A stretch of DNA of 63,846 nt, counting the filler, from Kipferlia bialata (Eukaryota): the NCBI GenBank assembly GCA_003568945.1. It is 5 parts of 5 records of this genome, joined end to end, with 100 filler letters (N's around TTAATTAATTAA, not from the genome) between each part and the next. Parts side by side here need not be neighbours in the genome. Positions count along the whole stretch, not along the records: positions 1 to 18,025 come from BDIP01000495.1; 4 more parts are not named here. One strand, written 5' to 3'. Under the pieces are notes generated by a model. The model had not been told where the DNA came from. It searched no databases and saw nothing but the letters and a program-made list of their open reading frames with translations. A program made the position numbers and the translations under genes. Positions 2,547-63,846 of this stretch are shown in pieces (positions within the stretch are counted from its first letter, which is position 1; every line of letters begins with the position of its first letter).

Positions 2547-5500
2547 AACGGCCAATTTCACGTCCTGTATGCTGGAAGCAACCCTACTCCTGTGTCTGTC
2601 TTCGGTCTCTCCACGTCTACCCCCCTCCGGTGGGTGTCTGTACCCCTCTCTCTCTCCGACAAGGTACATACACTGGTACAGGGAGATGCCTCTATCATCC
2701 TGGGCCATGCAGCATCTGGCTGTGCTGTGGTGGCACTCTCTGGTGGGCATGGGTCTGTAGATATCCTGTCTCTTGACCGGTCTTCTCCCAAGGTCTCTCT
2801 CCTGCACCTCTGCCGCCTGGCTAGGCCTCTTGGGTACAGTGTGGGTAGGGTGTCCATGTGTGGCCCCAGGGTCTTGCTCTCTGACGCCTCCGGTACCCAT
2901 GTCACCTCTGTCAATGTACGGACAGGGAGTGCCATGGGGTGTGGCATCAGGGGGAGGGCACACATGCCATGCAGTGTCGGTACAGTGTGTATTGCTGATC
3001 ACAACCTCCACGTTGCAGTCAGGGATGGAACATCGGTGTGTGTGGCACATACCGTCTATCTATGCTGTGTGAGGGATGATGCTCTCATGTGGGTAGTAAG
3101 GGGGGCTCAGAGGACCACTCTTTCAACCACACCACTCTCCCCACTCCTCTCCACCCCCCAACTACCTGCCGCGACAGAGTCTCATGCCGTCATACACCCT
3201 ACTCCCCACAGATGGGTTCACAGAGAGAAGGGAAAGTCTCCCTATACCCTCTTATGCCACACAAGCTCTGGTTGTATTGGTGTATCCATTGGCGTCGATC
3301 TCTCCTTAGTTGGGCTGGGTGTGTATGACCCATCTAGGGGGTGGGAGCAGTTGGTGGAGGTACCAACAGGAGTGGCTGTCCTTCCCCATGTGTCGGGAGT
3401 GCCACTGTACCTGGACCACTGTGTATATGCATCTGTGCTTGGCCGACTGGTTAGAGTGGACCTGGGTGCAAGGAGTGCCTCAGCCATATGCCTCTCCCTC
3501 TCTGCCCAGCCACGAGTGGCCGCTGACATGAGTAGCCTGATACTACAGACACCCAGTGGCATCAGACGCTACCCTCTCAACAGGGACATGAGAGTGGGAG
3601 CCCTTACAGTAGAGAGAGTCTCTGAAGGGAGTGTGGCTGGGGTGTTGGTAGGAGATGCTGTGGTTAAGGGTGTAGCAGGGGCAGAGTCAGTGTACTACCG
3701 GGTGGACAGGGGTGTGTGGACACCGATGGATGTAGTCACGTCCTCCAAGACCCGACACAGTAGAGTACAGGTCACATCTCTCCGTGACTTGGTTACCCTC
3801 CTAGAGAGTGGCGTGGCTGAGTCTCTGGATGTCAGTGGTACGGAGGAGACCTGTCTCCATCTAGACACCGCTCTGTCCAACCGGTGTCTAACTGACTGTA
3901 CATTCATGCACTGTAGTATCAAGTCTGCTACCAGAGCTAGTTTCACTGGGTGCTCTTTCGAGGGATGTACTATGGTCAACGCTGGCCTGTCCCAGATGTC
4001 TCTCTCTGCATCTTCTCTCACTGAGTGTGACCTCTCTGGATCAGACCTCAGTAAGGCTACCCTGACCGATGTTAGGTGTAAGGGGGGTAGGCTTCAGGGG
4101 TGTTCCTTCAAGGGCACTTCCCTAGCCAGTGTTGACTTCGGTGGCATTGCATTGAGTGGGTGTGACTTCACACTATCCACATTCACCTCAGTCAGTGTAG
4201 ATGGGTGTGACATGTCAGAGGTGACACTCAATGGGTCTGACCTCAGTGGGTGTAGGGGCCTGACAGTAGACACCCTCCACAGCGCAGTGTCTATAAGAGG
4301 GGCCATACTCTCTGGCCGTGACCTCAGTGGGTGGAATCTTAGTGGTCTCGACCTGACTGGTGTTGTGATGACAGGGACTAACCTCACTGCTTGTGATCTG
4401 TCAGGAACCACTGGTATGACGGCCACACAGCTACACGCAGCAGCGTCCCTCACCAAGGTATCTCTGAGTGGTATGCAGATGGGTGGGTGGGACCTCAGCG
4501 GCCTATGTCTTTCTGGTGCTGACCTGAGTGGCTGTGGTATAGTGGGGGCCAACTTGAGGGACACAGACCTGACTGGTGTCTCGCTCTGCGGTGCCACAGG
4601 GTTCTCAGCAAAGCAAATGAGAGATGCCAAGAGTGTGAGTGGTGTGATGGGTCTTGAGAAGTGTAACCTGACTGGTGCTGACCTCAGTGCCATTGACCTC
4701 TCGGGGCTTAACCTCACTGGCGCCAACCTCTCTGACACTGCTCTCAAGGGGACTAACATCACAGGCACCACTCTTACCGGTGCCATTCTTGTCAATGCTC
4801 CTTTATGTGAGACCATTGGTCTCAGTTGGAAACACATTCGTAATGCTGGCTGCTTAAAGGGAGCCAACTTGGCCAAGAGATGTCTGACGGCTCAGGACAT
4901 GAGTGGTCTAGACCTCAGTGGTGTCTGCCTCGACGGGTGCAATCTGAAGGGAACCAACTTCACAGGGTCCATTCTAAAGGATGTCAGTCTTGTTGGCGTT
5001 AGTCACCTCAATCCCAAGCAGCTGCGCTCTGCTAAGGATGTGATCGGACTCAACATGTCCGGTCTCAATATGGCCTACTGGGATATGTACGGTCTCGACC
5101 TATCACGGAGCAACCTGTCCAATTGCGACCTTTCCGGTGCCACTCTGACCGGGACAGTCCTCACCGGAGCGGACCTTTCCCACTCGACACTTAGACTTAT
5201 TATTGGTCTCACAGAGCGTCAGCTGCGGGACGCTACATCTCTTTAGGGGTGTGACATCAGCGGCATGGATCTCTCTGGTTTCAACCTATCCCACTTAGAC
5301 TTGTCCAACGTTAACCTGACCCGCACTCGTCTACACAATGTCAACTTCAGAGAGACCATCCTGCGAGGAACCTCTTTGACTTCATCCAGTGTGCATGAGA
5401 CGGTTCTCTCCCGTGCTGTTCTGCCCGACACTGCAGTGCCAATGTTAGTGGATAAAATTCGGGGCATAGACTGTGACACTTTCTTCCTCATTGTTCCTGT

Positions 5501-9100: not shown

Positions 9101-12100
9101 CTTGACAAGTATCGGACTACCTCAGGTATGCAAAAGGACCAGACCCAGCCTCCAACAGGCCACATCCGTTGGGCAGGCGCTCTGGTCCAGTGGTAAGGAA
9201 GAGCGTGGTGCCCCGTGTACGTGCCTTGGTAGTTACACCGCTGAGGTAGTCTGAGATGTCGGCCGTGAGTGTCTCGGTGGGCACTGCTGCCAGGTGGTAC
9301 AGACTACCAGTGACTAGCTGCTCAGAGGTGGATAGGTACTCCTCACAGCCTATCCCCTCATGGCCTGGGGTGTCTATAGCCCCACACTGCACACACACAG
9401 AGTGGTGGCAGGAGTCACAGCTCTGGTACCCATCAGACTTGGACAGGATGTTGTGGCAGTCAGGTACCACACACATCCCAAGTGGCATGGAGCCTGCCTT
9501 CAGGTGCTTGGCTGCCAGTCTGGATGCGTACTCCTCATACTCAACGGGAGACAGAGACCCCTTCAGGTCCTTGATGTATGCAGTCTCGTGGCACTTGGCA
9601 CAGGTGATAGGCTGGGAGGTGGGGTCTTCCAGTGACACCATGCACTGTTTGACCATGCACCCTTTGCAGAATGGGTGGCCGCACAGGTATAGAGAGTCGT
9701 CAGCCTCTCCGTGGCAGTACACACACCTCCTGTCACACTCCAAGTGCCCTGCTCTCTTCAGAAAGTTGACCAGCTTCTGCTGGACGACACGCATCTCTGT
9801 CTGCTGGGACTCAAAGGAAATGTCACTAACGGCCTCTCCGTTGGATCCACTGTTGGCCAGTATATTCTCTCTGCACTGAGGGAGAGAATACATGTACGTC
9901 AGGATGTTGCGCCTGTTGTCGTCGTACTCTAGACGGCCCAGATGCAGTAGGGACCCACTGTTGATGGAGTCGATGAGCTGGTCTCCCGAGGCACCCTTGC
10001 GTCTGAAGAGCAGTGCTGCCTCAGTACTGAGCTCGATAGTCTGGACTCTAGGCTGGTACTCCTTGGCGGTGTGGGTGTGGATCCTGTTGACAAGTGCGTC
10101 ATAGGTGCCTCTGTCGCAGTAGAACTTGACCCCCTTGATGCGGTTACCAGATCGGTATAGGACCTCCCTGCCGGCACCTCTCTCCCTGCACCATTGGGCT
10201 AACAGGCCATCTCTGTCTGCCTTCAAATCATCCTTGAACAGAACCTCACGGCGTCTCCCGAACACCGCATAGTAGTGAGGAGTTGTCAGCTTAGTCAGCT
10301 CTGCAGCGGCCATGCCACACACACTGGGCACACCAGATATCACAAGGCACGTGGTGTGTACGCCTGAGTCTGTCATGTCAGCCTGAGTGCTGACCCTGAC
10401 TCCCTGGAGACCCAGCTGACTGTACTTGTCGTATACAGTCTGAGCCATCTCATCCAGAGGGTAGCAGTCTGCATGCTTGACCAATACACTGCAGTCGGTA
10501 TGTGATGTATCGGGGTGGCACTGTGTGTATCGATCAGCGTCAGCTGCCGAAGGGAACACAACACTGTAGATGTTGGCAATAGAACCAGTGAGTGCCTCTC
10601 CAGTACTAGTGGTACTCTCAGTGGGAAGTGAACCGCGTAGTGCTGTGGCAGCATTGCTGCAGTCTAGGGTATTGTCGAAGCAGAGGGTAGCTGATGTGGA
10701 CCCATCTGTCTCCGACAGAGTGACATACACAGGGGTGGAGTCACATGCTCTGAGGACATCTGCGTCCTTGGTGCTGCTGGGCATGTCTCGGATGACTATG
10801 CTGGGGACATCAATGACCTCCAAGGCAGTGTATCCCTCACTCGATATGCTCTCTCTCAGTGTGGATATGTCCTGTGCCTGGATGTGCAGTGTAGTGCCCA
10901 GCCTCTGTGACGCAGAGAGGCTGCCAGCGCTCATCTCTGCCTTGGGGTTGGGGACACAGGCACGGGCGGTAGCGGCAGCTGCCTCGTTGCGGAAGTGCAC
11001 CACCCCAGAGACAACCCTGCCCCCCTCTCTAAACAGGGTCCCATACTTCATGTCAGTCTTTGGATCCAGCCTAGCCAGCTTGCAGAGCCACAGGGCCAGG
11101 CTGCGGTCTGACCTTGTCTCTGGGGGCACCCTGTCTACAGTGACGCACAGAGGGTCGTCGGTGGTGGTGACGGCCCTAACCACCCCACCTCCCAGTATCA
11201 CTACGCTGTACTCACCAGCCCCCTCTCCCAGGACTACCCTGTCCTCGTACTCCCTGTAGTTCTCACGCCAGGCACGAACCACACCCACGGCTCTGCGACG
11301 AATGTCGGCACCGCAGTTTGCAGGGGCGTGGATGGCGACTGTACTGGCGTCCAGGTCATGGACCACAACTGCGTGGTACTTGTACTTGGACCTCCGGAGA
11401 ACCCTCTCCAGCTCCAACACAACGGAGCGGCCGACGTTCTTGGCTGTGAAACACACCTCTGTGTTGAGGGTCTGTGCCTTGATCCAGTCCTGCTTCTCAT
11501 AGGAGAGCCATGCTGGGTGTAGGGGGTGGGACATCGCGGCACGTAGCCACCCGTCCTTCTTGGATACGGGGGCGTCGAGGGAGAGAGCCACAAAGAGGGA
11601 GTCTGTGTCCCCGGTGTAGCAGAGCTGTGACTCAGGGGACAGGACACGCATAGTGCCAGATCCGTGGAGCATGTAGACACGAACTGCATCAGCAGAGGGC
11701 ATCATCTTCTGACCTATGTGCTGTGGGTAGGCATAGGCCAGACACCTGCCTATGACCTCTAGCTGATGGGGTGTGTAGTCTGTGGAGACAGCAAGACTCT
11801 GAACATGATCCGTTGACTCCACAGGCTCCCTCTCAGCCACGACCGGGGATGATAACACACTCACCAGTGCCGTACGGGCTGAAGCAAGAACTGTGTGGTC
11901 AAGTCCTGCCTCCTCTGCATACTTGTGTCTACACTGATCACAACCCAAGTGTGACAAGGGATCATCAGACACCACCAGCCCACAGTCACACTTGCCCCCA
12001 GTCAACATGCCTGTGGACAGCCACTCCCTGTATGCCTGGTGGTAAGACTGACTGACCATCTTCTTATCTCAGACTGGAATACACAATGAATGCAGTTATA

Positions 12101-15466: not shown

Positions 15467-15545
15467 GAAAGAGGGGGGGGGGGGGGGGGGGATAATACAC
15501 AGACTATCATTGTAGACTTATCATGATACTGCAGTCGTTATATAC

Positions 15546-16107
15546 CTATCCAGTTCCTCCTGCCTCTGTCTGTATGACATGGGTGCAGATGGGGGTAGGG
15601 GGTGGGCAGTGATGGGCCTGGCACGGCGGAGGTAGGTGTCAGTCACTTGCCTAGTATGTTAGACAATATCCATAAGACATATATACGTCATATATTCATA
15701 GGTGTCGGTCACGTGCCTAATGGAAGAGTGGTATATGTTTATCACTTCATGAACACTGTATCTAAAACAGATATATATACCTCCCCGGCTCCTGCGTAAC
15801 AGCTGGAGTGTGTGTTATGGGTCAAATATACATATACGAGGCTGCTCATTACTCTTACTATGACATATATACTATCACACTCTGTACCTCCCCGGCTCCT
15901 GTCTGACTGCCGGTGTGTGTGTCATGGGCCTCTGACCAGACACACCCCGGGCAGTGCCAGGTCTGGAGCCTTAAGGTGAGATGTATGAATGACCCAGTAC
16001 AATATTGAGAGAGCTGGCCACTGCCAGGTGTCTAACAACAAAACGATAGAATATATACCTGCGGTTATGGGTCTGTGCTGCAGTCTGGCCTTGTCCAAAG
16101 GGTATGT

Positions 16108-16144
<37 letters not shown>

Positions 16145-17994
16145 TAAAGAGACAGGTACAAACCTGCCGTTATGGGTCTGTGCTGCAGTCTGGCCTTGGC
16201 TGTACTGGCCCTGGACCCACCCCTGGACCTGGAGGGCATGATGCCACCTAGTCCAGCACCTAGAGGTAAGGGAGAGGTATTTATATATACTGGAGAGAAA
16301 GGGGGGGGGGGGGATGTGGACCTGGAGGGCATGATGCCACCCAGACCGGCGCCTGAAGGTTAATGCATATACATACATACATACACATGGATATATATAT
16401 AGAGAGAGAAACAGAGAGAGATAGAGGGCATGATGCCACCCAGACCGGCGCCTAGAGGTCAATACGTACACATATACATACATATACTAGTAGATATGTA
16501 AGTGAGTGAGAGAGAGAATCTGGAGGGCATGATGCAAGGGAGAGATAATGACACAAACACTAAGGTATACATACTGGTTTTAACATACACTTATCAGTTA
16601 TGTCCTACCTAGCTCACTGAGTTCACTGTCACTCCCCTATATGAACTATATATATACATATACTAGGGTATGTAGTATATGTAGTATACATGTATATCCA
16701 TACCTAGCTCACTGAGCTCACTGTCACTGCCCTCGTCCTGGATGAAGTCGTCATCATCATCCATGACACCTGAGAGTGAATATGGAGAGAGAGAGAGAGT
16801 ATACGTAGTATATAGTGTGTAATACAGCATATATTATATATTACCTAATTCAGCGAGCTCTGCCTCGTACTCATCGTACAAGAGGTATATACTACACCAT
16901 ATATACATATAGGTATGTATATATATACTGAACTATACCTAGCTCAGCCAGCTCTGCCTCGTACTCATCGTACTGGGGGGACTTGGGGGTCTCCTTGGCC
17001 TAAGAGTCAGAGATATAAACTCACAATACTGTAATACAATTGAATATTATATAGAAACAAAACCGCAATGGTGTTTATGTTGTCTGCTCATCATAGACAT
17101 CCTCAGATATGTATATCATTACAATAGATATATACATACATATATGTACATATATGTATATATATGTATAGTTTACGTGTATACACACCTTTGGCATCTT
17201 TGCTGTCTGCTCATCGTATGCATCCTCATCGTCATGGGGGATGGGGGCAGTCACAGGCCTTGAGGTTAGTACATGCAAATATACACTAGCATATAGGAGG
17301 GTATACATTCGTATTGTATAGGAGTGTGAATATTACATGCATCCTCATCGTCATGGGGGATGGAGGCAGTCAGAGGCCAAGAGGTAAGTATTGGTATTTG
17401 TAAATACAGTATATATGCTCAGACACACAGATATACACAGTATACTGTGGTGATACCTATAATCGAATCCTCCTGCCACCCTCACCACCCTCCTGGGTAT
17501 CCTGTTAAATTCTTAATACATATATTCATTATAGAATATCCTACTAATAATATAATGTTTACCTGTAGTCAAACCCCCCTGCCACCCTGACCACCCTCCT
17601 GGGTATCCTGTTGTGGCTGGTCTCCACTAGGGGTCTGCCTGAAGGGTGAGACACATATACACACATATATACATGTATAGAGAGAGAGAGACAGACAGAG
17701 ATACTGGTGTGGCTGGTCTCAACTAGGGGCCTCCCTGGGTGAGAGTGGGTAAATATAGGTGTATGTGAATGTATGCATATATATATATCATGTGTGAAGA
17801 CACATAGGTTCACAAAGAGTCACTCAATTTGGAGTGTAGTAGTGACAATCACCTGCATTGCCTGGCTTCCTGTATCTAACATTTGGGGACTATATGGCAT
17901 ATATATACATATACATACACACGTATCTCTATTCTTATACTCACCTGCATTGCCTGGCTTCTTGCCCCTCTGACCCTGGGCAGCAGTATCCATC
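15546..17994 (-). CDS. Internal exons of a low-complexity protein of unknown function (recurrent RPITA/RPVTA/RPGTA motifs, acidic stretches)
   Basis: Phase-compatible short exons, e.g. GRPLVETSHNRIPRRVVRVAGGFDYR, PVTAPIPHDDEDAYDEQ, AKETPKSPQYDEYEAELAEL, KARLQHRPITAG. Confidence 0.65.
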
Positions 17995-18025
17995 CTGAGG
18001 GTAAAGAGGGTAAATATATATATAT

Positions 18026-18125
18026 NNNNNNNNNNNNNNNNNNNNNNNNNNNNNNNNNNNNNNNNNNNNTTAATTAATTAANNNNNNNNNNNNNNNNNNN
18101 NNNNNNNNNNNNNNNNNNNNNNNNN
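18026..18125. other. Artificial contig linker N44-TTAATTAATTAA-N44
   Basis: Six-frame-stop spacer, repeated identically four times in the window. Confidence 0.98.
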
Positions 18126-18230: not shown

Positions 18231-35801
<17,571 letters not shown>

Positions 35802-36140
35802 CTGGGGGTGAGACCAACACTGAGATATATATATATATATAAGTATTGTTGGGAACTGGGAGGTATGTCTGGAACCAGAGGCACTGGGGGTGAGGTCACA
35901 CATATACTATATAGGAAGAGAGATCGACACAACGAGGAGAATACTAGAGGGTCTGTCTGGAACAAGAGGCACTGGGGGTGAGGGAGACAGAGAGACCGGG
36001 GGGGGGGGGGGGAGGAAGCAAGAGAGTACTGATGCAAGGGAGAGAGTATCATAGACACTTGGAAGAAGTCTGAGACAAGAGTAAACATTCGAAGCGAGGG
36101 AAGGGGGGGGGGGGGGGGGGGGGTCTCCCCTTTTGGGGAC

Positions 36141-36240
36141 NNNNNNNNNNNNNNNNNNNNNNNNNNNNNNNNNNNNNNNNNNNNTTAATTAATTAANNNN
36201 NNNNNNNNNNNNNNNNNNNNNNNNNNNNNNNNNNNNNNNN
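36141..36240. other. Artificial contig linker
   Basis: N44-TTAATTAATTAA-N44. Confidence 0.98.
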
Positions 36241-47361: not shown

Positions 47362-47461
47362 NNNNNNNNNNNNNNNNNNNNNNNNNNNNNNNNNNNNNNN
47401 NNNNNTTAATTAATTAANNNNNNNNNNNNNNNNNNNNNNNNNNNNNNNNNNNNNNNNNNNN
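47362..47461. other. Artificial contig linker
   Basis: N44-TTAATTAATTAA-N44. Confidence 0.98.
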
Positions 47462-47671: not shown

Positions 47672-49230
47672 TCACAGGCCCTGAAACAGGGAGGGACTAT
47701 TCACAGTAGAATTGTCATCGTTTGAGTACCTCCCTACAGCCATGCCCCTCCGTCTTTCCATGAGTGCCGCAGGTGGGTTCCACCTCACAGGGGCAGGAGG
47801 GGTGAGGGTAGTGTCCTCCCAGAGGCCTGGGGTCAGAAGCATAGTAATTGTCGCAATCCTGTATATGCATATGTGGTATATATATGGTGGTTCTACCATA
47901 TATGATAGAGACTATTTGATAGTAGGGTCGTGTCCTCCCAGAGGCCTGGTGTCAGAACGATGGTAACTCAATCATGTAAAGGTATATGTGGTGGCTCTAC
48001 CATTCTGGTTACCTTCTGATAGTGATTCTTTGACAGTGGAGACGCTTCACTAAGACAAAGCCATGTACAACTTGATGGATCATATTCAGTTAGCATTACC
48101 TCTCAGTGTGAACCTCCCCTCTCCTGTCACCCAGAAAGCATCCGACACAACCCCATACACCCCAGTAGACCTCACTCTCGGGCCTCCCTCGCACGTCCCC
48201 TCCTTCCACTCTGCCACGTCTGGGTCAAACAGGGCATATCTAGTGGCAGTAGGCCCTGGTTCTGTGGCAGCAACCTGAGCCTCCAGCATACTTCTAGTGA
48301 TATGATAGTGCCCTTGCCGTCTGAGTTTCCTTACCAGCTCTTCAGAGGCAGTGGAAGCTGGCATCTCTCCCAGACGCACGAGTACTCCATCTGACAGTCA
48401 GCGCGCTAGGTATTCGTTCGGTTACAACGATGATAGCGGGAGACAAGAAAGCCAGAAATGATTCCATTCCTTCACTATACCTAGCAAAGCAAATGAGTAT
48501 CTCTAGGAGAGTCCTAGTAGAAGTACAGGAATAGCATTCTTTCCTGGCACAAAGTCATAGACACAATACCAACGACAAGGCAAGACACTACTAGCAAAAG
48601 TTCATGAGTCCTTGCATTACCTAGCACAAATGAGTACACACAGTCCCACTGAGGAAGCCCCGGCACAGCGGTGATGCCCAGAGTGGCAAGGTCAAGTAAA
48701 CAGAGGGTGGGGTTGGGGTGCTCCTCTTCTGGGATCTCCCTCTCCCTCTCCCCCTCCTGCTCCATACCAGTTGCGGTGTACACTCTCTCGTGGTGGGGTA
48801 GATGAGAACTGAAGTGAACAGAGAGTGCAAATGATTTGACAGGAGAGAGTGTCTGAGTCTGGACGAAGTATCATGGGCATTATGATACAATACCTATGAC
48901 AAAAGTAGTATTGCTTTAAAGTCCACAGTCACGCGCGCAAATATACTCAGAACAGAAAGGCGGTGTCAGCAGAAGTACATGCTTCCTACCTCTTCAGCAC
49001 CATGTACACCCTGTCCCCCACTTGCCCTATGCACCTTGACAGCTTGTACCCACTGGGCAGAGCCACTCTCTGCACTGTCTCTACCACTGAGAGGTCCGGT
49101 GCAACAGTCACCACACTCAGACAGTTGACAATGTCAACTTGACATACACCCTGTCCCCCTTCTCCCTGATCTGCTCTTCACTGAGCCCCCCTATAGTGGC
49201 ACGATACCTCATCGCATATTGGTTCCCATC
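47672..49230 (-). CDS. Multi-exon hypothetical protein or decayed gene
   Basis: Coding-like exons (PTLCLLDLATLGITAVPGL; RYALFDPDVAEWKEG) with splice signals. Not fully reconstructed. Confidence 0.35.
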
Positions 49231-50248
49231 GATAGGGACCCTATCATAGGGCCGGTCTCTGTCACTAGTCGACGAGATGCAGGTCGGAGCGAACACATAT
49301 CGACTCTTGAGTCTGGTGATACAGTTGGGTGGACGAAGAGAAACTGGTAGGGTCCTGAGGTTAGTATGGTTTGTGTTGAGGTTAGTTTGGTATATGGAGT
49401 GTTAGAATCTAACAGAATCTGACAGAATATTACTTTGCTTTCAGTGAGTTTACTAATCACATATCAGGATCAGAGATTCTCGCTTACGAGGAGGCTAAAT
49501 GGGTGGTACATGTATTAGTGGTACCGGGCACATGAGTGGTATCAGTATCAGTATCAGAATCAGTATCGGTTAGTATGGTTGATGGTAATGTTAGTATGGT
49601 ATGTGGATTCTTTGATATACCTAGCACTGCCACTGGTATTGCTAGCAGTAGCTCTCTGTGTGCACATGGGTGTCTCCTACCAATAGGCTTTCAAAAATAT
49701 AGAGTAATGCCGTATTCTATATAGAATAACGATTATTCTATATAGAAATGGGGTCTATATCCCATTGGGAAGTTCCCCATGTGCACTGCTGTCTTGACAG
49801 GTGGGACACAGAGGCCGTTCCAAGGAATGTTCATCACCTTGTTCAATGTGAACATGGGGTTTCTGGCGTGATGGCACCACTGACGTCATTCCAGAGTAGA
49901 CAGCATATATGTTCTACACATCCGGATAGTTATAGACGATGTTACTTGCGCTATACTACATACGTACCTAGTGAAGCCAACACTGACGCTATTCCGGAGT
50001 ATATATACTACACCAGTGCATATACGTATATACCGATATAACAAAACTACTATACTATGTCACATAGTAACTATGTGACATTGTCACACATATTATGCAA
50101 GGTATTCTGTACGGTCAATCATACATTGACTCAATGAATCAGACATGATTGGAACATGGCTTCCATTGAGGTTATTGAATGGTGATATAGTACAACACAC
50201 CTCGTTGGCTTTGCTACCGTGGTCACTGTAAGTGGTAAACCACCCCTC

Positions 50249-51068
50249 TAGGTGATAGCCACCCTCTGGTGAGTATCTAGGCGAGCATAGACCACACCCA
50301 CATACCAGGGTGGATGGGTTGTATGCTTAGGTCAAGATAGGGTCAAGTGGTGATGGAGTGTAAAACTACAATAACAATACTACACAATGATATCGGTGGC
50401 TCTATATTTGTACAATATTCATTATACATCCCATATGTCGAGGATATGGAAGATACAGTAATGTGGCAACTACTTACTTCTGTCTGGATGCTCTATCCAC
50501 GTTATCCCTGTGCGTCTACGCATCTCTTTGAGCAGCGCATCTAGGGTCTCACATCTCAACTCCCACAGACCGGGAGGGAGACCTGGAGGATAAGGACCAA
50601 GCACATAGGTCCTCCCATAACACATACATATGCATAGACTATACTGGATACTTTACATATGCGCTTGTACACACCCTGTATTAACACACGTAGATACCTG
50701 AACTTGGTCTGTATGACTTTTACACATCCTTACTATGTCCGAACTGTTAGACTTATATACCTGAACTGGGTCTGTATGGCCCTGGTCCTCCCATCACACA
50801 AACACACATATATATAGTATACTGTATACTATTCTTTATACACACATACACTCTTGCTATGTCCGAATTGTTGGAGTTAGATACCTGAGCTGGGTCTGTA
50901 TGGCCCTGGTCCTCCCTTCACACATACATATGCATAGAGTATACTGTATATTATACATATGCACCTATACACACACCCTTACTATGTCTGATGTATACCT
51001 GAGCTGGGTCTGTATGGCCCCGGTCCTCCCTTGTGGTAGTGGTACAGGTACTTCCGAGAGTCGATCAT
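50249..51068 (-). CDS. Small spliced gene of unknown function starting MIDSRKYLYHYHKGGPGPYRPSSG/LPPGLWELRCETLDALLKEMRRR
   Basis: ATG at 51068 after an in-frame stop. The phase-1 donor at 50998 joins the only open frame of the exon at about 50478-50582. The 3' end is uncertain. Confidence 0.5.
50608..51030. repeat. Tandem array of exon 3' end + donor + intron head (spacings 114, 124 and 63 bp)
   Basis: ACCTGA(G/A)CT(G/T)GGTCTGTATG with the exonic part starting at 50999, 50885, 50761 and 50698, and similar intronic sequence between copies. Confidence 0.9.
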
Positions 51069-51547
51069 TGGAAGATGTGGCAGTTAATAAGAGATACAGA
51101 GAGACAGTGTGGTTGAAGCCCTCTAGACTACAATCCTTCAACTTGAGGGTCTCAAGAATCGGAGAATCGGAGAAGGGATTGACCAATAGAGAATCTCCTA
51201 ATTGTGAAGAAGTCTCAATTAAGCTTACCCAAGGCATTGTTAGCAATGCTGTCATAGCATCGTCTGAAAGAGAAACAAGAATACAGATGTGATAAGTACC
51301 ACAGCCGTAGAATTTATGCAAAAGACTGAGTCATATATGCTATATAATGAGTCAGTTTCCATGACCGATTCGATCGGTATGTCCAGCAGATACCAGTGAC
51401 AGGAAAAGACTCAAAGCAACGTGTGTTGAGTCAAATCTATTTGACAATGTCGCATGACCCACGAGTGACATATCAACCCTTGTCACACACACATTACATG
51501 AACTGCTCCATCCACTCGTTGCCTGTCACGAGACCTGTGCTGCACAC

Positions 51548-53373
51548 TATGTAGGTGTGGCCCTCCTTCTCCCCAAGGTGACGGAAGGCGGCAACCTCAC
51601 TCCTGGTGACACCGCCCTGCTGTCAGCTATGGCGTAATATTTGAATTATAGACTATCACAATACACACACACACAAATGGAAAGAGAATATTTGCATATA
51701 TACCCATATATATATATATATATATGCAGGTGTGCTGAGTACGTACCACAATGAACACCACACTGGCTGTCTGATCCCCGTAGGCGTCTCTCTCTCCCCT
51801 GGGCCTAGACGCCTCTCTCCCACTCTCGCTATCCTTCTCAGAGAAGCCACGGCTAGCACCCTGGTGGTCAATTAAAGTCAAACAGAGTCATTAATAGTCA
51901 ATATGGGTACCTTGAGTCCCTTGAGAAGTCTCCTGACCTCCCCCCTCTCCTTGAGGAATGAGGTGATGCCACTGGCAATGTTGTCCTGTAGTGAGAAAAG
52001 GGGGAAGAGAGAGAGAGAGAGAGACAGAGACAGAGATGGGAGGAAGTATATAGAGAAAATGTATAATTTCAAAAGAGAGAAAACATTTACATATGTATAT
52101 ATATATACCTTGAGGTTCTCGCTATCTCTGGTCCTCTCTCTCTCGAGGTCTCTCTCCCTCCCTCTCTCCAGCTCATGCATGGCAGACACAACCCTGGGAA
52201 TAAGGGTCTAGACGGAGAGAGAAAGTAAGGGTGCAGATGGGGAGAGAAGGCCACCAAATGAATACCTGGTCGTCATGGGTGCACACACATATATAGACGT
52301 ATACATTTATGCTCAAAACATATATACACATACTATTGTAAAAAGTATAATGTACACTAATAATCATTGTATGTTATACACTACTATATATACCTTGTTG
52401 TCATGGGTGCGTAGTGGCTGTACACACACATATATATATATTAATATATGAATATATATTCTCCATACATTATATATGTATAGTATATATATATATATAC
52501 CTTGTTGTCATGGGTGCATAGTGGCTGTAGACGTATCCCTCGCCCTTGGGCTTAGAACTGGACCCATCCCCTGGGGTCAGTATATACGAATTCACATTGA
52601 ATATTGTCTGGCCTCGTAAACATAAATGCCCACATCGTGTATATGATACATAATATATCTATACACAAATATATTATTGCAGAGACTAAACATTCTGCAC
52701 TCACCCTCTGAGATTGCTGCCACGTAGTCGTACTTGGTCAGGTGGTAGTGCCTCCTGGGGGTAAGGGAGGGGAAATGGTATATGTATATACATAAATACA
52801 TATGTATATACATATATATACATGTATATAATACTATGTGTGTTAAAACAAGGAGTTAAGTCAGGTGGTAGTGTCTCCTGGGGGTAAGGGAGAGAGAAAG
52901 AAAGGGGGAGAGAGAGGGAGAGAGAGAGAGAGTGGTAGTGCCTCCTGGGGGAAGATGGTAATTGAGACTATATTTCAGAAAAGAGAGAGTAACGACAGTC
53001 GCTGAATCCAGTGACATTATGACACCAAAGCAATAAAATATAGTCATATACTAATTACTTACTAACTCAGACAGACCATACAATACCCTATCCTACCTAG
53101 TCTGGTCCCACTTGTCCCCATAGCCAAGGGGGGGCACGGGGATCCTGAGGGTAAGGATACTAGTGCATAGAGATACGAGTATATATATATATATATGAAG
53201 AGTCCAGGGGCACAGGGATCCTGGGGGTGGGAATACTTCCATACTCGTATTATCCTATGTACAGAGATAATGGGTGGGGGATCCTGAGGCTCAGAATACT
53301 ACCATATTTATATATATCCTATGTAAAGAGATAATGGGTGGGGGAGACAAATAGGGAGAAGAGAGAGAGGGGG

Positions 53374-53408
<35 letters not shown>

Positions 53409-55096
53409 CTACCTGGAGTCCTGCAGGCTCAGCAGGCCAGCAATCTCAAGGTTCCTGAGGTGAGGGCTTGTGTGGAATGAACAGAACAGAAAAGTATAGT
53501 ATACTGAACAAATAGTCCAATTCGCTGTACCTGAGGGCACTTGCTACTGATGCCCCATAGCATGACACTACTAGACCCACGGCACGCTGCATGGTCTTCC
53601 TGTCAAGGCCTCCATCCACGACAGACAGGAGGCAGAGGGCCCTGGTATTAGAGGAAACGACACACAATAGTCAATATATACAGACGAATATATATATATA
53701 TATTGTGACGTATATCTAGGCCTCCATCCACCACAGACAGGAGGCAGAGGGCCCTGGGCGTTAGTATACACATACATGACATAATAATACACATATGTAT
53801 ACATAGACAGAGAGAGAAAGAGAGAGGATATCTAGGCCATCATCTACTAGCAGACAGAGGGCCCAGGATATGATAAAGCAGGACGGATCAATTAAAACAC
53901 TGGTACACAACTTCACATGTATATATATATATATACTACATACCTTAGCACTCTAGCCTTGTGCTTGGGTGACATGGTGGGGTTGGTCTCATCCTCTCTC
54001 TCTCTCCCTCTCTCTCTCAATATATATATACATATAAACATACATATATTCTATAAAATACCTCAGCACCCGAGCCTTGTGCTTGGGTGACATGCTCGGG
54101 TTGGTCTCGTCTGCCATACAGGCCTGGATCACATCCTCCAGTCTATCAATGTACTTGTTGCCCTGGGGTTAGCATTTTAACAACCTAGTAACAATAATTA
54201 CAGTGCAGTCAGATTGTAAATCACTCTCTAATCTGTACAATGTACTTGTTTCCCTGGGATTCGCATGTCACCAACTGAGTAAATACATAACACATATATC
54301 TGTATACACGATCCCAATACCTTCTTCTCCCCCTTCAGCAGGATCGATGACTCGTACTTGTGCAGTGCGGGCAGGAGGGCATCCTTCTTGACAAGCTTCA
54401 GGATGTCCCTGACAAAGGAGGCAAAGTTAGTAAGAACCTTGGATCAGATACATATAGACAAAGAGAGAGAGAGAGAGAGAGAAGGATGTCTCTGACAAAG
54501 GAGGCAAAGTTGGTAAGGACCTACAGTAAGAGCAAGAGAGAGAAAAGGATGCCCCCAAATGACCGAAGGAATAACAGGTAACGTCTTTAGAGTAGACACA
54601 CAGAGAGCGAACTATCGTTCTCATAATAGTAGTACATACCTGCACGTGTATCCTGCTGATCAGCCTCTGCTGTCCCTGCTGGGCAGATGAGGTCTCGAGG
54701 TCATTCTCCAGGCCCTGGGGGTTAGCTGCACTATATGACTCGCGCTCATATGTATCACATTATGATATGACAAAAATCTCTGAATCTCGCTCTATAGGGT
54801 CATTCTCCATATCCCCTGGGTGCAAGAAGTGTCATTGATAGCAAAGACAAAAGGAATGACGACTATTCCGCCATTATATCCACTAACCTGCACCCTCTTG
54901 AGTATGGCAAAGTATGGGTCGAGGAATACAACTATAACGAGGATTCAAAATAGTATATTAAGAGTTGGAAACATATATATCTATATCTCTCTATATACTC
55001 CCACCTGCACCCTTTTGAGTATGGCAAAGTAGGGGTCGAGGTCAAGGAAGTGGTTGTCCTGGGGTGAGATGACATATATACACATACATACATATA

Positions 55097-55135
<39 letters not shown>

Positions 55136-56949
55136 ATATATAACATATATATAAATATGTACAACAAACAACAGTATATATATGTGTATGTGCACTTGTA
55201 TGTGTATGTGTCTAGGTGGTTGTCCTGGGGTGAGACGACATAATAAGGCTAACTATAAATACATTTGAATGAAAATGTTGATATAAACTCATACCTGTAA
55301 GCTGTAGAAGACATACTACTCTCCTGCGTGCTTTCATAATCACAACAACACAAGTATCCAAAGATCTCGTAAATCCATACCTGAATGCTGTGGAAGATGG
55401 GGTTGTTGTTGTTGATGCAGCAGGAACGGGTCTTGTCAGCAGAGACCTGGGGTGTCAGAAGGGAGATACACACACATAAACACATATATATATCCATAGA
55501 GAGAGAGAGAGAGGGAGATAGGAAGGAACGGGTCTTCTCAGCAGAGACCTGGGGGGGAGGAAGGGAGAGAGATACGTGGACACGATACAGGGAATAGGAG
55601 GCACCAAGAGAGAGAGAGAGAGAGAGAGAGGGTGTGTGTGTACCTGCAGGTGACACATGGAGTGTGCACAGTTGGCAAGGGACAGGTCATGCAGAACACC
55701 TGGGGTAAAGGGGGGTAGAGAGAGAGAGAGAGAGACAGGTCATGACCTATGTCTTACTATTTACACTTCTCTGCCTCCTACCTCTGATTGTGTCCTCTGT
55801 GTGCAGAATGGCCTACCTTCTCTCACATACACACACACAGTCTCTCTCTCATTCTATATGTCTCACTATATATATATATATATCTGCCTGATACCTGTGA
55901 TTGTGTTCTCTGTGTGCAGCATGGACACAGGATCAAGGGCCCTGAAATAAGGGGTGTAGAGACAGAGAGCATACAATATACATTGAATAGTTGGAGGGTA
56001 AAGGCAAGGAGTCCGGGACCCCGTACATATGTATAAATTTGAATATACACATATTAATATATCTATATATATAATCATATATCCAAATATATATACATGC
56101 CCACCTGTCCACGATGTACAGGTCGATGCCGCTGCCCTCCATCTCTCTCTCCCTGCTCTCGGCAGAACCAGAGTCACTGGTGTAAGGGTGTAGATTGGAG
56201 GGAGAGAGATAGAGACACTCGGCAGAACTAGAGTCACTGGTGTAAGGGTGAAGAGGGAGGAAGAGAGAGAGATAGAGATTCCTCCGCACACATCGTACAG
56301 TGTGGCGGTTTATATAATGTGAAGGCCAAAACACTAATATTTGAACACACTGGATATTACTCATATAACCATACACATGCCCCTGGCTTCTGTGTACACA
56401 TGGTGCAGTTAAGATAGTGAATATAGTATGATTTACGATAAATATGAATATATACAACATGAATATATACGATGAGAGAGATGAGTAAGAAATATAAATA
56501 ACACATATACATACCCCTTGGCCTCTGTGTACACATCGTGTAGCTTCGATGCAATGTCACCCTTGGCCATCACTCTGTCGAAGCCTGGGGTGGGTAAAGG
56601 GTGTAGGGGGAGAGAGAGAGCCTCAGACAACAACTACGTGTGTCTAGGTACTTCCGTCGATGTATCTCTCTAACTGTCTGAGGCCCAGGGCACTGTGAAT
56701 GTGTGTATATATATATTAATATTCATATATATATATCATATATACATATATACCTCCATCAATGTATGGGGTATATATATAAATATACCTCTTTTCACAC
56801 ACATACTTATATTTAGACATGAATGTAAAATATATATACCTCCGTCGATGTATCTCTCTAACTGTCTGAGGCCCAGGGCACTGCTGTAGAGGGAAGAGGT
56901 GTTGGTGTCGGTGGCAATCTAGGATGACGGGTGGGTAATAGTGAGAGAT

Positions 56950-57000
<51 letters not shown>

Positions 57001-59811
57001 ACTGCTGTAGAGGGAGGAGGTGTTGGTGTCGGTGGCAATCTGGTACGTGAGTAAAAGTAATATTTAGCTTGAATACATATATGCAATTACAGAGTCCCAG
57101 ATGGAGGAGCAACACACCACTGTAGCAAATATATACGGACCTCCCTCCATGTCATGTGCTATGAAGGGGGCATCCCACATATACACTTTATATATACACC
57201 ACTAGTAAATATATATACATAGACCAGGTATATACCTCCCTCCACACTGTAGTGCCCATCTCCAGCACATCTCTGTCATGTGCTATGAAGGGGGCATCCC
57301 ACACAGCCACTCTAGGGCCACTGCCTGCAAGGTGGTCGGAGACACGCTGCTGGGATGAGATATACTAATATGTATATATATGGAGAGAGAGAGAGAGAGA
57401 GAGGACCTGCATAGTGGTCGGAGACACGCTGCTGGGATAAGAAGTGTACTATCTTCCGTGTATCTATATATAGGGAGAGACGTGCGAATATAGTGAGAGA
57501 GAACGGCTGCCAGGTGGTCGGAGACACGCTGCTGGGATAAGAGGTGAATATATATACATATGCATTGGCTGTGAGAGAAATACAGCATGGGGCCACTGCC
57601 AATATATACATATTTATGTACATGCACTCACCCCGTAGTACTCTGGCACGTACTGGATGAAGACTACCAGCCAGTCAGCCTCAACGTCGCAGATGGACTG
57701 GGGTCAGATACATTGATAGCGGCAAAGATGAAAATGTAACCAGAGAGTATATATATAAATATCTTCCATACAATGCTTGGTTATATAATTATGACAGCCA
57801 GTCAGCCTCAACGTCGCAGATGGACTGAAGTTAGACACATAGATATATAGAGAGAGAATACAGAACTAGCAGCCACAGGTGGACTGAAGTGAGAAGCTCC
57901 ACAATTGAGAAATAGTATGGGAGACTAGACCTCAAAGAATACTTCACATTGACTAATGTACTATAAAAAGCAATATACCACGAATTGTGACAGTGTATTA
58001 TTCACTGATGTCTGTCTATAGATAAGGAGAGAGAGATGACCTCCATCTCCGTGAAGCACTGTATGAGGCAAATATTGTTATGAAAACAGAGAGTGCATAC
58101 ATCTTGTATTCAATATACTTGATATATATATACCTCCATCTCCGTGAAGCACTGTGTGATACACAAGTACCCAAAGAGAAAGAGTTCAAAATGGTATAAC
58201 AATTTACATGTCAATATATATATCATAAGATGATGTATATATCTTTATATATATACAATATATATATATACCTCCATCTCCGTGAAGCACTGTATGAGCT
58301 TGGACACGTTCTCCCAGGTGGGTCTGAGGACAAATATCTGGGAATGAGGGTGTAGCGAAAGAGAGAGAGAGAGGCAGAGAGACAGAGCCTACCAGGTGGG
58401 TCTAAGGACAAATATCAGGAAATAAGGGTGTAGAGAGAGAGAGAGAGAGAGATGTAAATACATACCTTCTTCTTGACGTTCTTGGCAGCTAGTGGAACGC
58501 TGAAGGTGCCTCTGATGCCTGAGGGTCAGAGAGAGAGAGAGAGTAACAAGAACATAGAGGAAATACCCCGAAGTGGCATTCTAGGATACCGACAGTCACC
58601 ACACTCCCAGTCAATGAGTGTACATATAGCATACGTAAACATATTATTGTATACCCGTCTCGCTTCTGAACACCGGCCATCCTGGGGCAAGGTTGGTGGG
58701 GATCTCAGTGGCCCTGGCGTTAGGAATAATAATAAAGACCATACTATACTATGATATGTGATATACTCCATTAGACCCGTACTACTGTCAATGCATCACT
58801 ACCTCTGGCTGTCCCAGAAGTATAGCAGGCCCAGTGAAATGGGGAAACACATAAAGATACAACCATACATACTGCTGTATAACACACACTCTCTCTATAT
58901 ATATACAACCATACCTCTGACTGTTCCAGAAGTATGGCAGGCCCAGTGCAATGTGGGCAGAGAGGGAGGGGTCAAAGTAGAAGGCGGTGTTCTGGGGTAA
59001 GAGAGAGAGAAAGAGAGAGAGGGAGGTCAAATCGAAAGACAAGAGTGTTCTGAGGTTTGTCATTAATACATAAAAGAACACAGTACTGATACAATCACTG
59101 CTGAAAGGGGATTCCATTACCCTATACCATAGTGTATCAACATAGCACCCACCGTGAATGTGAACACTGTGCCCTGGTACCCCTTGAGACGCTGATAACG
59201 CTGGGGGACGTCCTAGGTGTTAGTTCTTTGTGATTCGAGGAGAGAGAGAGAGACAGAGAGAAAGTAAGCGAGATAGCGATGGTAGACATCCTTGGCAAAC
59301 TATACCGTGATGCATGGAGGATATGCAAACAAAATGCCATTCAAAGCTAATGTAAATAGTCTCTATACACTGTACCTTGGACACTATGTCTGTGAACTGG
59401 TTCAGTGCATCGGTGCGGTACCTGGGGGTAGGGGAGAGGGGGGGGGGGAGTATATAAGACACAATGTGTCCATATAAATATACAACTACTATATATACCT
59501 ACCATAGAGTACACCCATACCTGTCTGCCAGTGATACAGTGCTATGGAGACTACATCACACAATCAGTACATGATATTATGTACCTATCTATTCCTATGA
59601 CACTGTCTGCCAGGTAGGGCTGTCTCTTGCCAGCATGGTGGAAGGTGTCCTAGGGTAAGGGAGAGACAGAGGGGGAGAGAGGGAGAGACAGAGGGAGAGG
59701 GGATAAGGAGGGATGATCCCTGTACATCATAGTGGAAGGTGTCCTAGGGTAAATACATAATTATTTGTATGATACAGAGTGAGAGAGATTGTAGGTATGG
59801 TGGAAGGTGTC
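51548..59811 (-). CDS. Large multi-exon protein of unknown function; 5' end missing
   Basis: Phase-compatible exon chains, e.g. ATEIPTNLAPGWPVFRSETG/IRGTFSVPLAAKNVKKK/IFVLRPTWENVSKLIQCFTEME and DNHFLDLDPYFAILKRVQ/GLENDLE../VLTNFASFVRDILKLVKKD. Confidence 0.7.
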
Positions 59812-60084: not shown

Positions 60085-63000
60085 CATGAGCTGTGTCTGT
60101 CTTCACTCTCTCTCTATATATATATATACACATATATATGCATACACTAACCTCTGCCTGGCCACTGCCATGAGCTGTGTCTGTGCCCCCCCCCCCTCCC
60201 TTTCTCTCTCTCTCTCTATAAATATATATATCATTATATATATACTATATATATACCTCTGCCTGGCCACTGCCATGAGCTGTGTCTGTGCTCTCTCTCT
60301 CCCCCTCTCTCTCTCAATATATAAATTCAATATGCACTACTGACCTCTGCCTAGCCACTGCCATGAGTTGTGTCTGTGTGGCCGGTCTGCCACCCTGGCC
60401 CATCACAGACGGCATGGGCACACCAAGGGCCTTGTTGTAAGTGAGGCATGTATATATGTAAATATACATATAGAGGCAGAGAGAGAGAGACATACAGAGA
60501 GACAGAGAGACAGAGAGAGGGATGGTGACAGAGAGGGCACAATCTTACCTGTAGAGGGTGGACCTTCTTGCCCTGCTTCTTGGCCTCAGACATATATATA
60601 CACACACTATATTATATATCATATATACATATATATATGTTATACATATATACTATACCTGCAGTGGGTGGATCTTCTTGCCCTGCCTCTTGGCCTCGGC
60701 TATCTCGGCATCCCGCTGCAGCTTGATCTGGTGGTTAGACATCATATACACTGCTGATATAGTATACAATATGAAGTATTAAATAGTACACATATCTCGG
60801 CATCCCGCTGCAGCTTGAACTGGGGGGTGAGACACCCCATATTCGTATAGTATATGATATATATAGCCTATCAGATGCAGTAAATAGAATACAGTACAAT
60901 GTATACACCACCCGATTCACTAACATACCTTGTAGTCGGATGTCTCCATGAAGGCCCGTCCCACAGCACATACTTACACTATATATACTATACTATGATA
61001 TATCTATGATATGTATAATCTTATATATATATAGTGTGTGTATGTGTATATCCATATATGCATACCTTGTAGTCGGGTGTCTCCATGAGGGCCAGTCCCA
61101 CGGCTGCCTTCCTGAGGGCACCCACATCATTGGTGCCATCGCCACACATGAGGGGGGCCATGCCTGGTATTTGATATGTATATATACGCTAATATGGGGT
61201 GGGGGAGAAAAAGAGAGAGTTGACGCCAAATAGTATAGATAGATACTATAGTAGGGGGCCCATGCCTAGGGGTTAGAGGGAATGTATATGTGTACAGATA
61301 TATATATATATATATATATATATACGTATACCTGCATCTGCGAGCACTGCCACCACAGCAGCCTTGTACGGGGTATAAACACATATATTCACCCAACCAT
61401 AGATTCATACATCTATCTATATATATATCATATATCTATGTATATACATGTACATACACACCTGCATCAGCGAGCACTGCCACCACGGCTGCCTTGTTGT
61501 CGGGGGAGCACCTGGCAATGACCTGTGGGTAAGAGAGAGAGGAAGAGAGAGAGGGAGAGAGAGATAGATATTCACAACCAAGATGGCAGCATGCAACATC
61601 ATGTATATATGAATACCATACCTTGAGCAGGGGTGTCACGAGTGTGGCCAGGGCTGGGATCTCAAGGAGCTCGTCAAGCTTGTTGCCTGATGGTAAGGGA
61701 TAGTCCAAGGCTATAGAACTAACACCCACATATATATAGTATATCATACTATACTTCATCATGCACCTGATGCACACAGTGCCATCTCCCTGATGTCTGG
61801 CAGTGTCTGCCCAGGTGTGATAGTATACATGCATATACATATATATATATATATATATATACTATACCTGATGCGCATAGGGCCATCTCCCTGATATCAG
61901 GCAGTGCCTGTCCAGGTGTGATGGGCAGAGTGGCAGGGGGCACACTAGAGACACCAGGCTGCTCAGCATAGAGGGGCTCAAACACAGCACAGGGAGGGGT
62001 GGGTTTGGACTGTCATCAGCAACCGCGTAGAATAGGAGGATCGCGTAGAATAGGGGAATCGCGTAGAATACGTACCTTCTTGTCTGCAGGGTCTGCTGGG
62101 GCACCTGGAGTGACAGAGGCGAGGCGCATGACGGCCCTGCCCTTGGCAACAATGGCACTCTTCCTACACGATAAGGAGGGGTATCGCGTAATTGTGATAA
62201 TGAATATGCTATATAATGTATATATACCTGGCAACAGCTGCTGCTGTGTGCAGGTTGTCCCCTGTGATCATATATATATATATATATATATACTACATAT
62301 ACTACTACACCAATATAGTAATATACTACTACACCAATATAGTATATGTTGTATACCTGGCTACAGCTGCTGCTGTGTGGAGGTTGTCCCCTGTGATCAT
62401 GATATATATATATATATATACATATATACTACTAAATACACTACCATGCCAGTATAGTATATGTTGTATACCTTGCCACAGCAGCAGCTGTGTGGAGGTT
62501 GTCCCCTGTGATCATGATGCACCTGTGGCCACTGGACTTGAGGGACAGGATGGTCTTCCTGGAGGTAAGTCATCATCTATATCAATATACATATATACAT
62601 AACCACTATGATACTATAGGTTCTATATACACTGGACTTGAGGGACAGGATGGTCTTCCTGAGGGTCAGTGTACAAGATATATATATATCAATAATATAC
62701 CGCACTATGCATACGCAATATACACACCGCCATGTCATCTCTCTCTCTATATATATTATTATACATATACCTAGTGTCTGTCTTCAAGGGACTGTCACTC
62801 AGCATCAGTCCGGCAAAGACTATATTAACCTATACAACACATAAATACCTGATATATACTATGCATACTACATACATACTACATACATATATACCTAGTG
62901 TCTGTCTTGAGTGGACTGTCACTCAGCATGAGTCCGGCAAAGACTATATATATACAAACAACATAACTACTTCATAATATATGTATATTCTATATACTAT

Positions 63001-63696
63001 ATAGTATATACTATATATACCTAGTGTCTGTCTTGAGTGGACTGTCACTCAGCATCAGTCCGGCAAAGACTAGGTCCTTCTCAACCTCACTCCTCTTCTT
63101 GGTGCGGATGACGGCAGATCTGACGGTGAGACTAACTTGTCACTAATCGAGTAGAGTCTTGTCACACACCGTGTACCACTCACCCTGATGACAGGTCTGT
63201 CTGTCCACCCAGTCTATCTTACTTGTCACACAGTATAATGCAGTTAATATATAACGTGTAGCACTCACCCTGATGACAGGTCTGTCTGTCCTCCCAGTCT
63301 GCGGTAGGCAAGGGCAATCACCCTGTAGCCCTGTCTGGAATGGTCAGATATGAAGAAAACACCCATACATACCAAAATTATGATAGATAACAAAACAGTA
63401 ACTCTGAAGCCGTGTCTGGAGGGGTCAGAGAGAAGCCGACAAGGATGATATAGTATATCAAGAAAGATGATTGACATTTTCAGAGGGTATATATTTTCCT
63501 GGTAGCCTTGGACAGCTCTGCCTCGACCCACTCTGACACACAATAAGAGACAATATAGAAGGTATATATAGATAGGAAAGGTAGATATAACTAACCTGGT
63601 AGCCTTTGACAGCTCTGCCTCGACCCACTCTGGTGTCTCAGTGCACATGGTGGAGATGACCTCTGGTGCTCCCTGATTATTAATGTATATTCACTC

Positions 63697-63740
<44 letters not shown>

Positions 63741-63846
63741 TCGGGTGTCTCAGTGCACATGGTGGAGATGACCTCGGGGGCACCCTAGAGAGTTAGAGAG
63801 AGAGAGAGAGAGAGGGGGGGGGGGGGGGGGGGAGAGGGGAAGAAGC
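60085..63846 (-). CDS. ATP13A1: P5A-type ATPase (Spf1/ATP13A1-like), internal N/P-domain exons
   Basis: [66 protein letters not shown] (the P5A-type variant; P5B enzymes have GDGANDCGAL). Confidence 0.85.
62024..62070. repeat. Intronic 18-bp tandem repeat (CGCGTAGAATAGG..) x about 2.6
   Basis: Directly visible inside the intron between the ..ADKK and SKPTPP.. exons. Confidence 0.85.

Follow-up and report, generated by a model that had tools for sequence, protein, structure and literature searches.

Intron growth is usually ascribed to transposons or simple repeats. In intron 7 of the human F7 gene, a 37-bp VNTR runs across the exon 7-intron boundary (accessible passages of PMC1557585). Intron gain by tandem duplication, as in the Rogers and ATP2A1 cases, forms a new intron (PMC3265369, PMC4974935, in their accessible parts), and internal gene duplications have been described as frequent, some of them including introns (Gao and Lynch 2009, as cited in accessible text of PMC4974935). 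At meiotic double cuts in the mouse, inter-homolog end joining and tandem duplication are reported and fragment insertion is proposed (10.1101/2020.06.23.168138, accessible part). Metamonads are described as lacking Ku and DNA-PKcs of canonical NHEJ and as likely reliant on modified homologous recombination, and Kipferlia bialata as lacking Chk1, Chk2 and Rad9 (accessible passages of PMC8516963). In our own view, such losses could plausibly set the stage for inexact repair templated by the homolog. A literature search, with most subscription papers outside its reach, returned no account of dense, two-sided, silent-biased exon echoes, by which we mean partial copies of an exon in its neighbouring introns. 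The main text of the K. bialata genome paper is without duplication, heterozygosity and ploidy terms, three supplements are without the words 'intron' and 'exon', and exon echoes are unmentioned in the accessible passages of four metamonad papers.

We analysed a window of 63,846 nucleotides, the whole stretch of K. bialata DNA under study (assembly GCA_003568945.1). Its segments are joined by linkers at 18026-18125, 36141-36240, 47362-47461 and 59985-60084, each consisting of 44 N, a 12-nt spacer with stops in all frames and 44 N; these N-flanked linkers lie between contigs, and adjacent segments need not be neighbours in the genome. On the minus strand, a complete 76-nt exon, GRPLVETSHNRIPRRVVRVAGGFDY(R), is located at 17563..17638 between AG and GT. 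Upstream of it lies a 27-nt copy of its 5' end (5' echo, 17708..17734) with an intact AG ahead at 17736-17735, and downstream a 50-nt copy of its 3' end (3' echo, 17457..17506) with an intact GT next to it. The filler between 5' echo and exon (17639..17707, 69 nt) is rich in (CT)n/(AT)n, resembles the 3' half of an intron and ends in the used acceptor. The filler on the other side (17507..17562, 56 nt) is AT-rich, resembles the 5' half of an intron and has the used donor at its start. A script check placed the 5' piece, the full exon and the 3' piece where the earlier note had put them, and bore out its claim that every difference of the halves from the full exon is silent (3 + 6 = 9). Joined with the 1-nt overlap given in that note, the two halves encode the identical 25 residues; an alternative alignment carries the 5' piece to exon base 34 with two more mismatches, so its inner end is ambiguous and the overlap amounts to 1-8 nt. 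Of the two fillers, the upstream one alone has a clear microsatellite character. The probability that nine of nine differences are silent by chance is 3.7e-6 at a dN/dS of 1 and 2.5e-4 at 0.5, the value when only one copy is free.

Contig support for this structure came from two runs, X1 and X2, of one sample, possibly the one behind the window; both consist of assembled contigs, which drop rare forms, and the RNA nature of X2 is presumed. A single 860-nt contig of X1 spans 17176-18000 and agrees with the window there throughout (0 other letters, 0 gaps); its depth is 455.9, compared with 446.4 and 355.1 in the adjacent contigs. Half-depth echoes with no spanning reads, the possibility raised in the earlier note, were thus not found at this locus, where a full-depth contig spans the split exon and upholds its structure. 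The longest identical runs between the halves and the exon, 13 and 23 nt, are too short for a false join in a 31-letter graph. From X2, a 1807-nt RNA-like contig is made of 8 pieces matching the 8 modelled exons of the host gene with 0 mismatches. It includes the middle exon (matched piece 17562-17637) and skips both halves; its 4 listed joints, CT..AC as seen on the plus strand, correspond to GT-AG. DNA contigs and the RNA-like contig are concordant for this gene. The support covers 15500-18020 only, with DNA cover absent for two bins in 16010-16179 at skipped repeats, which speaks neither for nor against the structure; over 15500-18020 no second allele appeared, as other letters, among the X1 matches listed, which come from contigs that drop variants. 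The split exon is confirmed as a real feature.

The host gene, gene D (15546..17996, minus strand), has 8 exons in view, its 5' end being cut by the gap, and a profile scan of 1 exon gave no family match. It carries 12 echoes, at least one per exon. In addition to the two halves described above, an anchored search identified the following, all on the minus strand: a 3' echo of exon 17996-17945 at 17853..17872; a 5' echo of exon 17258-17189 that has lost its AG (17337..17377) and a decayed 3' echo of the same exon (17066..17105); one-sided 3' echoes of exons 16999-16939 (16845..16879) and 16769-16704 (16609..16638); two stacked 5' echoes of exon 16259-16164 within 16317..16451 (16451-16424 and 16352-16317), which share 3 silent differences from the exon, and a 3' echo of it at 16059..16093; a 3' echo of exon 15969-15888 at 15781..15821; and a 5' echo of exon 15650-15546 at 15699..15716. 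Echoes are spliced out in gene D: 0 of the 12 occur in the RNA-like contig, in which the innermost splice sites are used.

The search was extended to four minus-strand genes, modelled with a self-trained predictor and hand curation, and all echo statistics derive from this one window. All four frames are open, giving 110 exons; genes A, B and C are predicted models, gene A having been compared in addition with a deposited protein. Gene A (60152..63784) encodes a P-type ATPase of subfamily V, with 11 exons modelled (63672-60345) and 16 echoes at 9 of them. Its model equals protein P0001 at 304/304 residues (labelled 'P-type ATPase, subfamily V, partial [Kipferlia bialata]'), which was the one protein found among 5 candidates in a protein search with one 47-aa exon. 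Gene B (51498..59811) is a predicted model of 28 exons with an open frame of 685 aa and 26 echoes at 17 exons; its last exon has a Sec1-family match (E 5e-6) that falls under the curated cutoff. Gene C (18242..35971) encodes a BEACH-domain protein, with 63 exons, an open frame of 4221 aa and 4 echoes at 2 exons, and served as a nearly echo-free internal control. Its introns are short and plain, and 3 of its 4 echoes sit at a contig end. The fraction of echo-bearing exons is 9/11 in gene A, 17/28 in B, 8/8 in D and 2/63 in C, and echo density shows a more than tenfold spread among the four genes.

When each of the 110 exons was compared with both neighbouring introns, 58 echoes were found in the four gene models: 27 5' echoes, all upstream of their exon, and 31 3' echoes, all downstream, with 0 of the 58 on the wrong side across the 110 exons. 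Random exon-intron pairs gave 2 matches in 1947. Every echo is partial, with a length of 13-55 nt; AG is kept in 24 of 27 5' echoes and GT in 28 of 31 3' echoes. Runs of at least 30 nt common to echo and exon occur in 11 echoes, and short-read assembly can miscount such copies. Echoes are pervasive in the window, with a direct repeat unit that straddles a splice site and consists of an exon end, the splice site and part of an intron. Consistent with the earlier proposal that introns lengthen through this process, growth is stepwise: intron length equals 82 + 118 x echo count (r 0.94, 106 introns), and median intron lengths with rising echo number are 74, 194, 307 and 453 nt. Counting four weaker echoes as well, the 62 steps between successive copies measure 102 +/- 21 nt (range 60-166). 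Echo and filler lengths are uncorrelated (rho 0.06), which argues against duplication of a fixed length. Echo-bearing exons are short (median 74 nt vs 117.5 nt). Our gene predictor mistook echoes for micro-exons, a warning that they can mislead annotation in genomes of this kind.

Related structures occur elsewhere in the window. At 50697..51032 (minus strand), outside the 58 echoes counted, lies a four-copy array of an exon-like 3' end, GT and part of an intron, whose units are 77-80% alike and which is the clearest tandem unit of the window. Further near-repeat pairs, 77-120 nt apart, are found at 47805-48044, 48507-48648 and 49868-50001, the first of them resembling a minus-strand 5' echo. 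The first intron of gene B holds a decayed, sub-threshold 3' echo with GT (59585-59422, minus strand), and the modelled exon is 18 nt longer; judged from the letters, this GT may preserve an older donor position, through a splice-site shift. At 57190-57138 (minus strand), a 3' echo of exon 57349-57236 has an internal deletion of ~30 nt, and a weak sub-threshold 5' echo at 63415-63395 (minus strand) encodes HGFRV for the exon's QGYRV, plausible residue variants. Two long frames are intron-free: 2547-5243 on the plus strand, for a pentapeptide-repeat protein (E 1.5e-55), and 9123-12068 on the minus strand, for an IBR-domain protein (E 5e-6).

Differences between echoes and exons carry a coding signature. 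Pooled over the 58 echoes, dN/dS was 0.14 (bootstrap 0.08-0.23), with 92.5 differences at the 403 silent sites and 48.5 at the 1301 replacement sites, and codon positions 1, 2 and 3 held 26, 18 and 97 differences. Trimming 6 nt off the free ends gave 0.13. A ratio below 0.5 was indicated with P 3e-11; P was 2e-7 when transitions were given a fourfold bias, and 9e-9 when the analysis was restricted to the 47 innermost echoes. This pooled check, proposed in the earlier note, therefore gave a value far from 1 within the window. When same-allele duplication with a neutral echo was simulated at five divergence levels and passed through the same detector, dN/dS was 0.47-0.51; the contrast with 0.14 indicates that the echoes are likely derived from other working alleles or homeologs. 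Silent differences are GC/AT-symmetric (28 vs 32), whereas differences at codon positions 1 and 2 go from GC towards AT on the echo side (24 vs 10). We read this as silent changes having arisen while both copies worked, and replacement changes after displacement. The claim that the halves had once been coding, as a diverged version of the exon, thus agrees with the low ratio, with silent changes lacking a GC/AT direction and with the homology of the fillers. Comparison of echoes with each other in 11 arrays gave differences at 11 of 64 silent sites; for replacement sites the count was 10 of 209 (P 0.004 against 1). Array echoes thus differ mutually mostly at silent sites, which suggests contributions from more than two working versions. 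Replacement differences lie closer to the free end (P 0.003, weakening to P 0.03 and 0.23 without the last 6 and 9 nt), stops occur inside 3 echoes, and a conservative bias of the replacement changes was not significant (P 0.10).

We also compared the fillers with the flanks of the working splice sites. Identity to the working flank was low but above that of random pairs, with 0.61 at acceptor positions -12..-3 (0.42 in random pairs), 0.41 at -30..-13 (0.29) and 0.51 at donor positions +3..+8 (0.41), a second donor-side comparison giving 0.36 (0.30); in 40-nt gapped alignments, only 5 of 47 flanks scored above 95% of unrelated introns. Fillers behind 5' echoes resemble intron 3' halves, and those ahead of 3' echoes intron 5' halves. 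The fillers are thus homologous to neighbouring intron ends, and each unit is part exon and part intron. Replacement sites 96% identical beside flanks 36-61% identical cannot both be yielded by a single neutral history. (CT)n follows 12 of the 27 5' echoes and precedes 0 of the 31 3' echoes. De novo addition of (CT)n to both broken ends was rejected, (AG)n preceding only 3 of 31 3' echoes. A cDNA origin is unlikely, given that the echoes keep AG or GT and intron flank, not the next exon. Within introns, no age concordance was detected (n=10).

We propose, with a probability of roughly 0.5, that the echoes remain from inexact exchanges, offset by ~100 nt, between versions of the gene (alleles or homeologs) that had diverged but still worked. 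In a first step, a repair or crossover switch to the other haplotype would land ~100 nt back, so that a stretch is present twice, once per haplotype. Only switches duplicating a single splice site while keeping one exon intact would survive, placing 5' echoes upstream and 3' echoes downstream. An echo could then mispair with the exon of another allele, short exons offering the best homology between haplotypes; such unequal exchange would produce more copies with the same breakpoint, refreshed with working coding sequence. The displaced echo would finally decay. For the split exon at 17563..17638, such a history would mean one event per side, the neat meeting of the halves being due to chance or to a minority class of single breaks. 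The exchanges would require haplotypes ~20% apart at silent sites, which is high. An inter-haplotype origin is likely and forms the firmer part of the proposal, being common to it and to two of the alternatives considered below, a single break in an exon and its mirror image in an intron; the molecular route is what we infer.

The alternative that survives best, although we consider it doubtful, is a nested insertion at a single break, in which a break in one haplotype's exon is filled with the diverged haplotype's exon and its flanks in one event. It accounts for the low dN/dS and the flank homology equally well as imprecise exchange does, and insertion of a homolog fragment at a break is what the mouse meiosis preprint proposes (10.1101/2020.06.23.168138, accessible part). 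The distances between halves give it some ground. The median gap is 11.5 nt, smaller than the 18-21 nt of permuted data (P 0.03; 0.07 corrected), most gaps are positive and overlaps stay at or below 11 nt (P 0.09), as resection and microhomology would leave them; the smaller gap and the lack of longer overlaps lean to single-break events. Halves meeting within 4 nt were counted at 3 of 14 two-sided exons against a permutation mean of 1.7-1.9 (P 0.22-0.28), and at 4 of 14 against 2.0 after three hand corrections (P 0.11). Of the coincidence of breakpoints that the earlier note had suggested checking, the median gap gives the one nominal signal in its favour, and the count within 4 nt does not significantly exceed chance; closeness of breakpoints is a hint, not a result.

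Other observations weigh against a single break. In genes A, B and D, the 41 internal exons divide into 12 with both echoes, 6 with a 5' echo only, 11 with a 3' echo only and 12 with none, so that 17 of 29 internal echo-bearing exons are one-sided, and 5' and 3' echoes do not co-occur significantly (Fisher P 0.19). One-sided cases would have to be explained by halves lost through resection or later decay. In silent divergence, an exon's two halves are uncorrelated (rho -0.06, n=11, with low power), giving no age concordance, and the combined length of the echoes does not follow that of the exon (rho -0.06; 0.35 corrected, P 0.22). Independent breaks should not share breakpoints, yet the free breakpoint is common within 3 nt in 6 of 12 arrays, a pattern more readily explained by arrays growing through echo-exon mispairing than by new breaks. 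That a single cut opened the exon and a complete copy was inserted there is accordingly not established. We also regard as doubtful the broader suggestion of a recurrent repair or recombination route that exchanges entire exons between diverged haplotypes, a break in one receiving the exon and flanking intron of the other, which would make the genes interleaved mosaics of two or more alleles.

An improbable alternative is tandem duplication across a splice site within the same allele, by slippage near microsatellites, with the echo left neutral or converted by its own exon. The polarity, the step size and the arrays are all accounted for in this way, dinucleotide repeats occur in 91% of 33 echo introns vs 26% of 73 others, and the intron parts of the 50697-51032 array show its within-array likeness of 77-80%. 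Moreover, 12 of the 58 echoes have replacement changes only, and replacement divergence is overdispersed; simple duplication within one allele, followed by decay, therefore suits some of the echoes. By contrast, the ratio predicted from neutral drift after same-allele origin (~0.5, or 0.47-0.51 as simulated) was not what the echoes gave (0.13-0.16), and conversion within an allele predicts, by reasoning, a ratio of ~0.5-1, not a lower one. Nor can such a duplication give the 96% replacement-site identity beside the far more diverged flanks. Same-allele duplication is rejected as the main source of echoes in the window; it may underlie a minority of them.

Slightly less probable still is the idea that echoes are present or past alternative exons, either mutually exclusive duplicates that lost a half or halves joined across a nested intron. 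Such exons would yield a low dN/dS, and the splice sites of most echoes are still strong. The 5th percentile of used sites is surpassed by 23 of 27 acceptors and 24 of 31 donors, and the average echo site is slightly weaker than those in use (P 0.03 each, with matrices from the same genes). However, mutually exclusive exons need two complete copies with acceptor and donor, and all 58 echoes are partial. No strong donor was found at the ends of the 27 5' echoes and no strong acceptor at the starts of the 31 3' echoes, and loss of a half should leave wrong-side pieces, of which there are none. Joining of the halves through a nested GT-AG intron was rejected, as it stays in frame only through negative-scoring sites, and neither the site scores of the 58 echoes nor, for gene D, the RNA-like contig revealed a new GT-AG intron between duplicates. 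The absence of all 12 gene D echoes from that contig also speaks against alternative use, bearing in mind that contigs drop rare forms. The innermost site is used and the extras are skipped in gene D, as judged from one RNA-like contig, and the deposited protein agrees with the gene A model. Innermost-site use in gene D suggests exon definition with a proximity rule.

We attach only a slight probability to the mirror image of the nested insertion, a break in an intron that receives a homologous intron with both flanking exon ends. The order within introns (3' echo, donor, intron, acceptor, 5' echo) fits it, as do the likeness of the fillers to 5' and 3' intron halves and the one-sided occurrence of (CT)n. 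Against it, 3' and 5' echoes do not co-occur within introns (P 0.33), introns with one echo are common (17 vs 13 with two), and in 8 of 10 cases the summed length of both fillers exceeds that of the inner intron. Least probable of all is an assembly artefact in which two haplotypes of a heterozygous or mixed culture were written in tandem: the echoes look allelic and the assembly is fragmented and microsatellite-rich, but a separately built contig equals 17176-18000 letter for letter at its neighbours' depth, the shared runs are short as given above, and the order of intron pieces is unlike tandem bubble branches.

Whatever their source, one countable unit, half exon and part intron, accounts for most of the length variation of the 106 introns (r 0.94). 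If the echoes are derived from alleles, one genome stores fragments of past alleles, from which diversity and recombination become readable in a free-living metamonad whose sex and ploidy are poorly known, and break repair can be tested directly in a lineage reported to be without canonical end joining. Should the exon-swap route be true, exons would turn over, introns would gain ~100 nt per event, and introns would preserve earlier alleles as a readable record in order. The many strong decoy splice sites, which lie 60-250 nt away from those in use, likewise provide a natural test of exon vs intron definition, in a cell whose introns measure 50-110 nt and for a spliceosome described as reduced to 87 of 174 proteins (PMC6679479, accessible part).

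Among known systems, the F7 VNTR (accessible passages of PMC1557585) is alike in its direct repeats that straddle a splice site, with functional but unused pseudo-donors downstream and the first donor used. That case is one minisatellite locus whose donors are said to be identical, whereas in Kipferlia 54 echoes affect 34 of 47 exons of genes A, B and D; and unlike F7, as far as that text describes it, the echoes occur on acceptor and donor sides, with a ~100-nt step and a silent signature. Because they fail the same-allele, neutral-decay feature of splice-site-straddling duplication, we file them as a new variant of it. Intron gain by duplication (PMC3265369, PMC4974935, in their accessible parts) similarly involves a local duplicate that takes in splice signals, and the potato duplicate described there resembles a 5' echo unit in comprising the 3' end of an intron and the beginning of the exon that follows. 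In those systems a new intron is born, whereas in Kipferlia the duplicate is absorbed by an existing intron and no new intron was seen. The mouse system, in the accessible part of 10.1101/2020.06.23.168138, shares imprecise inter-homolog joins and haplotype switches at breakpoints; its events are rare, de novo, located at hotspots and mostly from ATM-null animals, whereas the Kipferlia echoes are dense, belong to an assembled genome and are tied to exon-intron structure.
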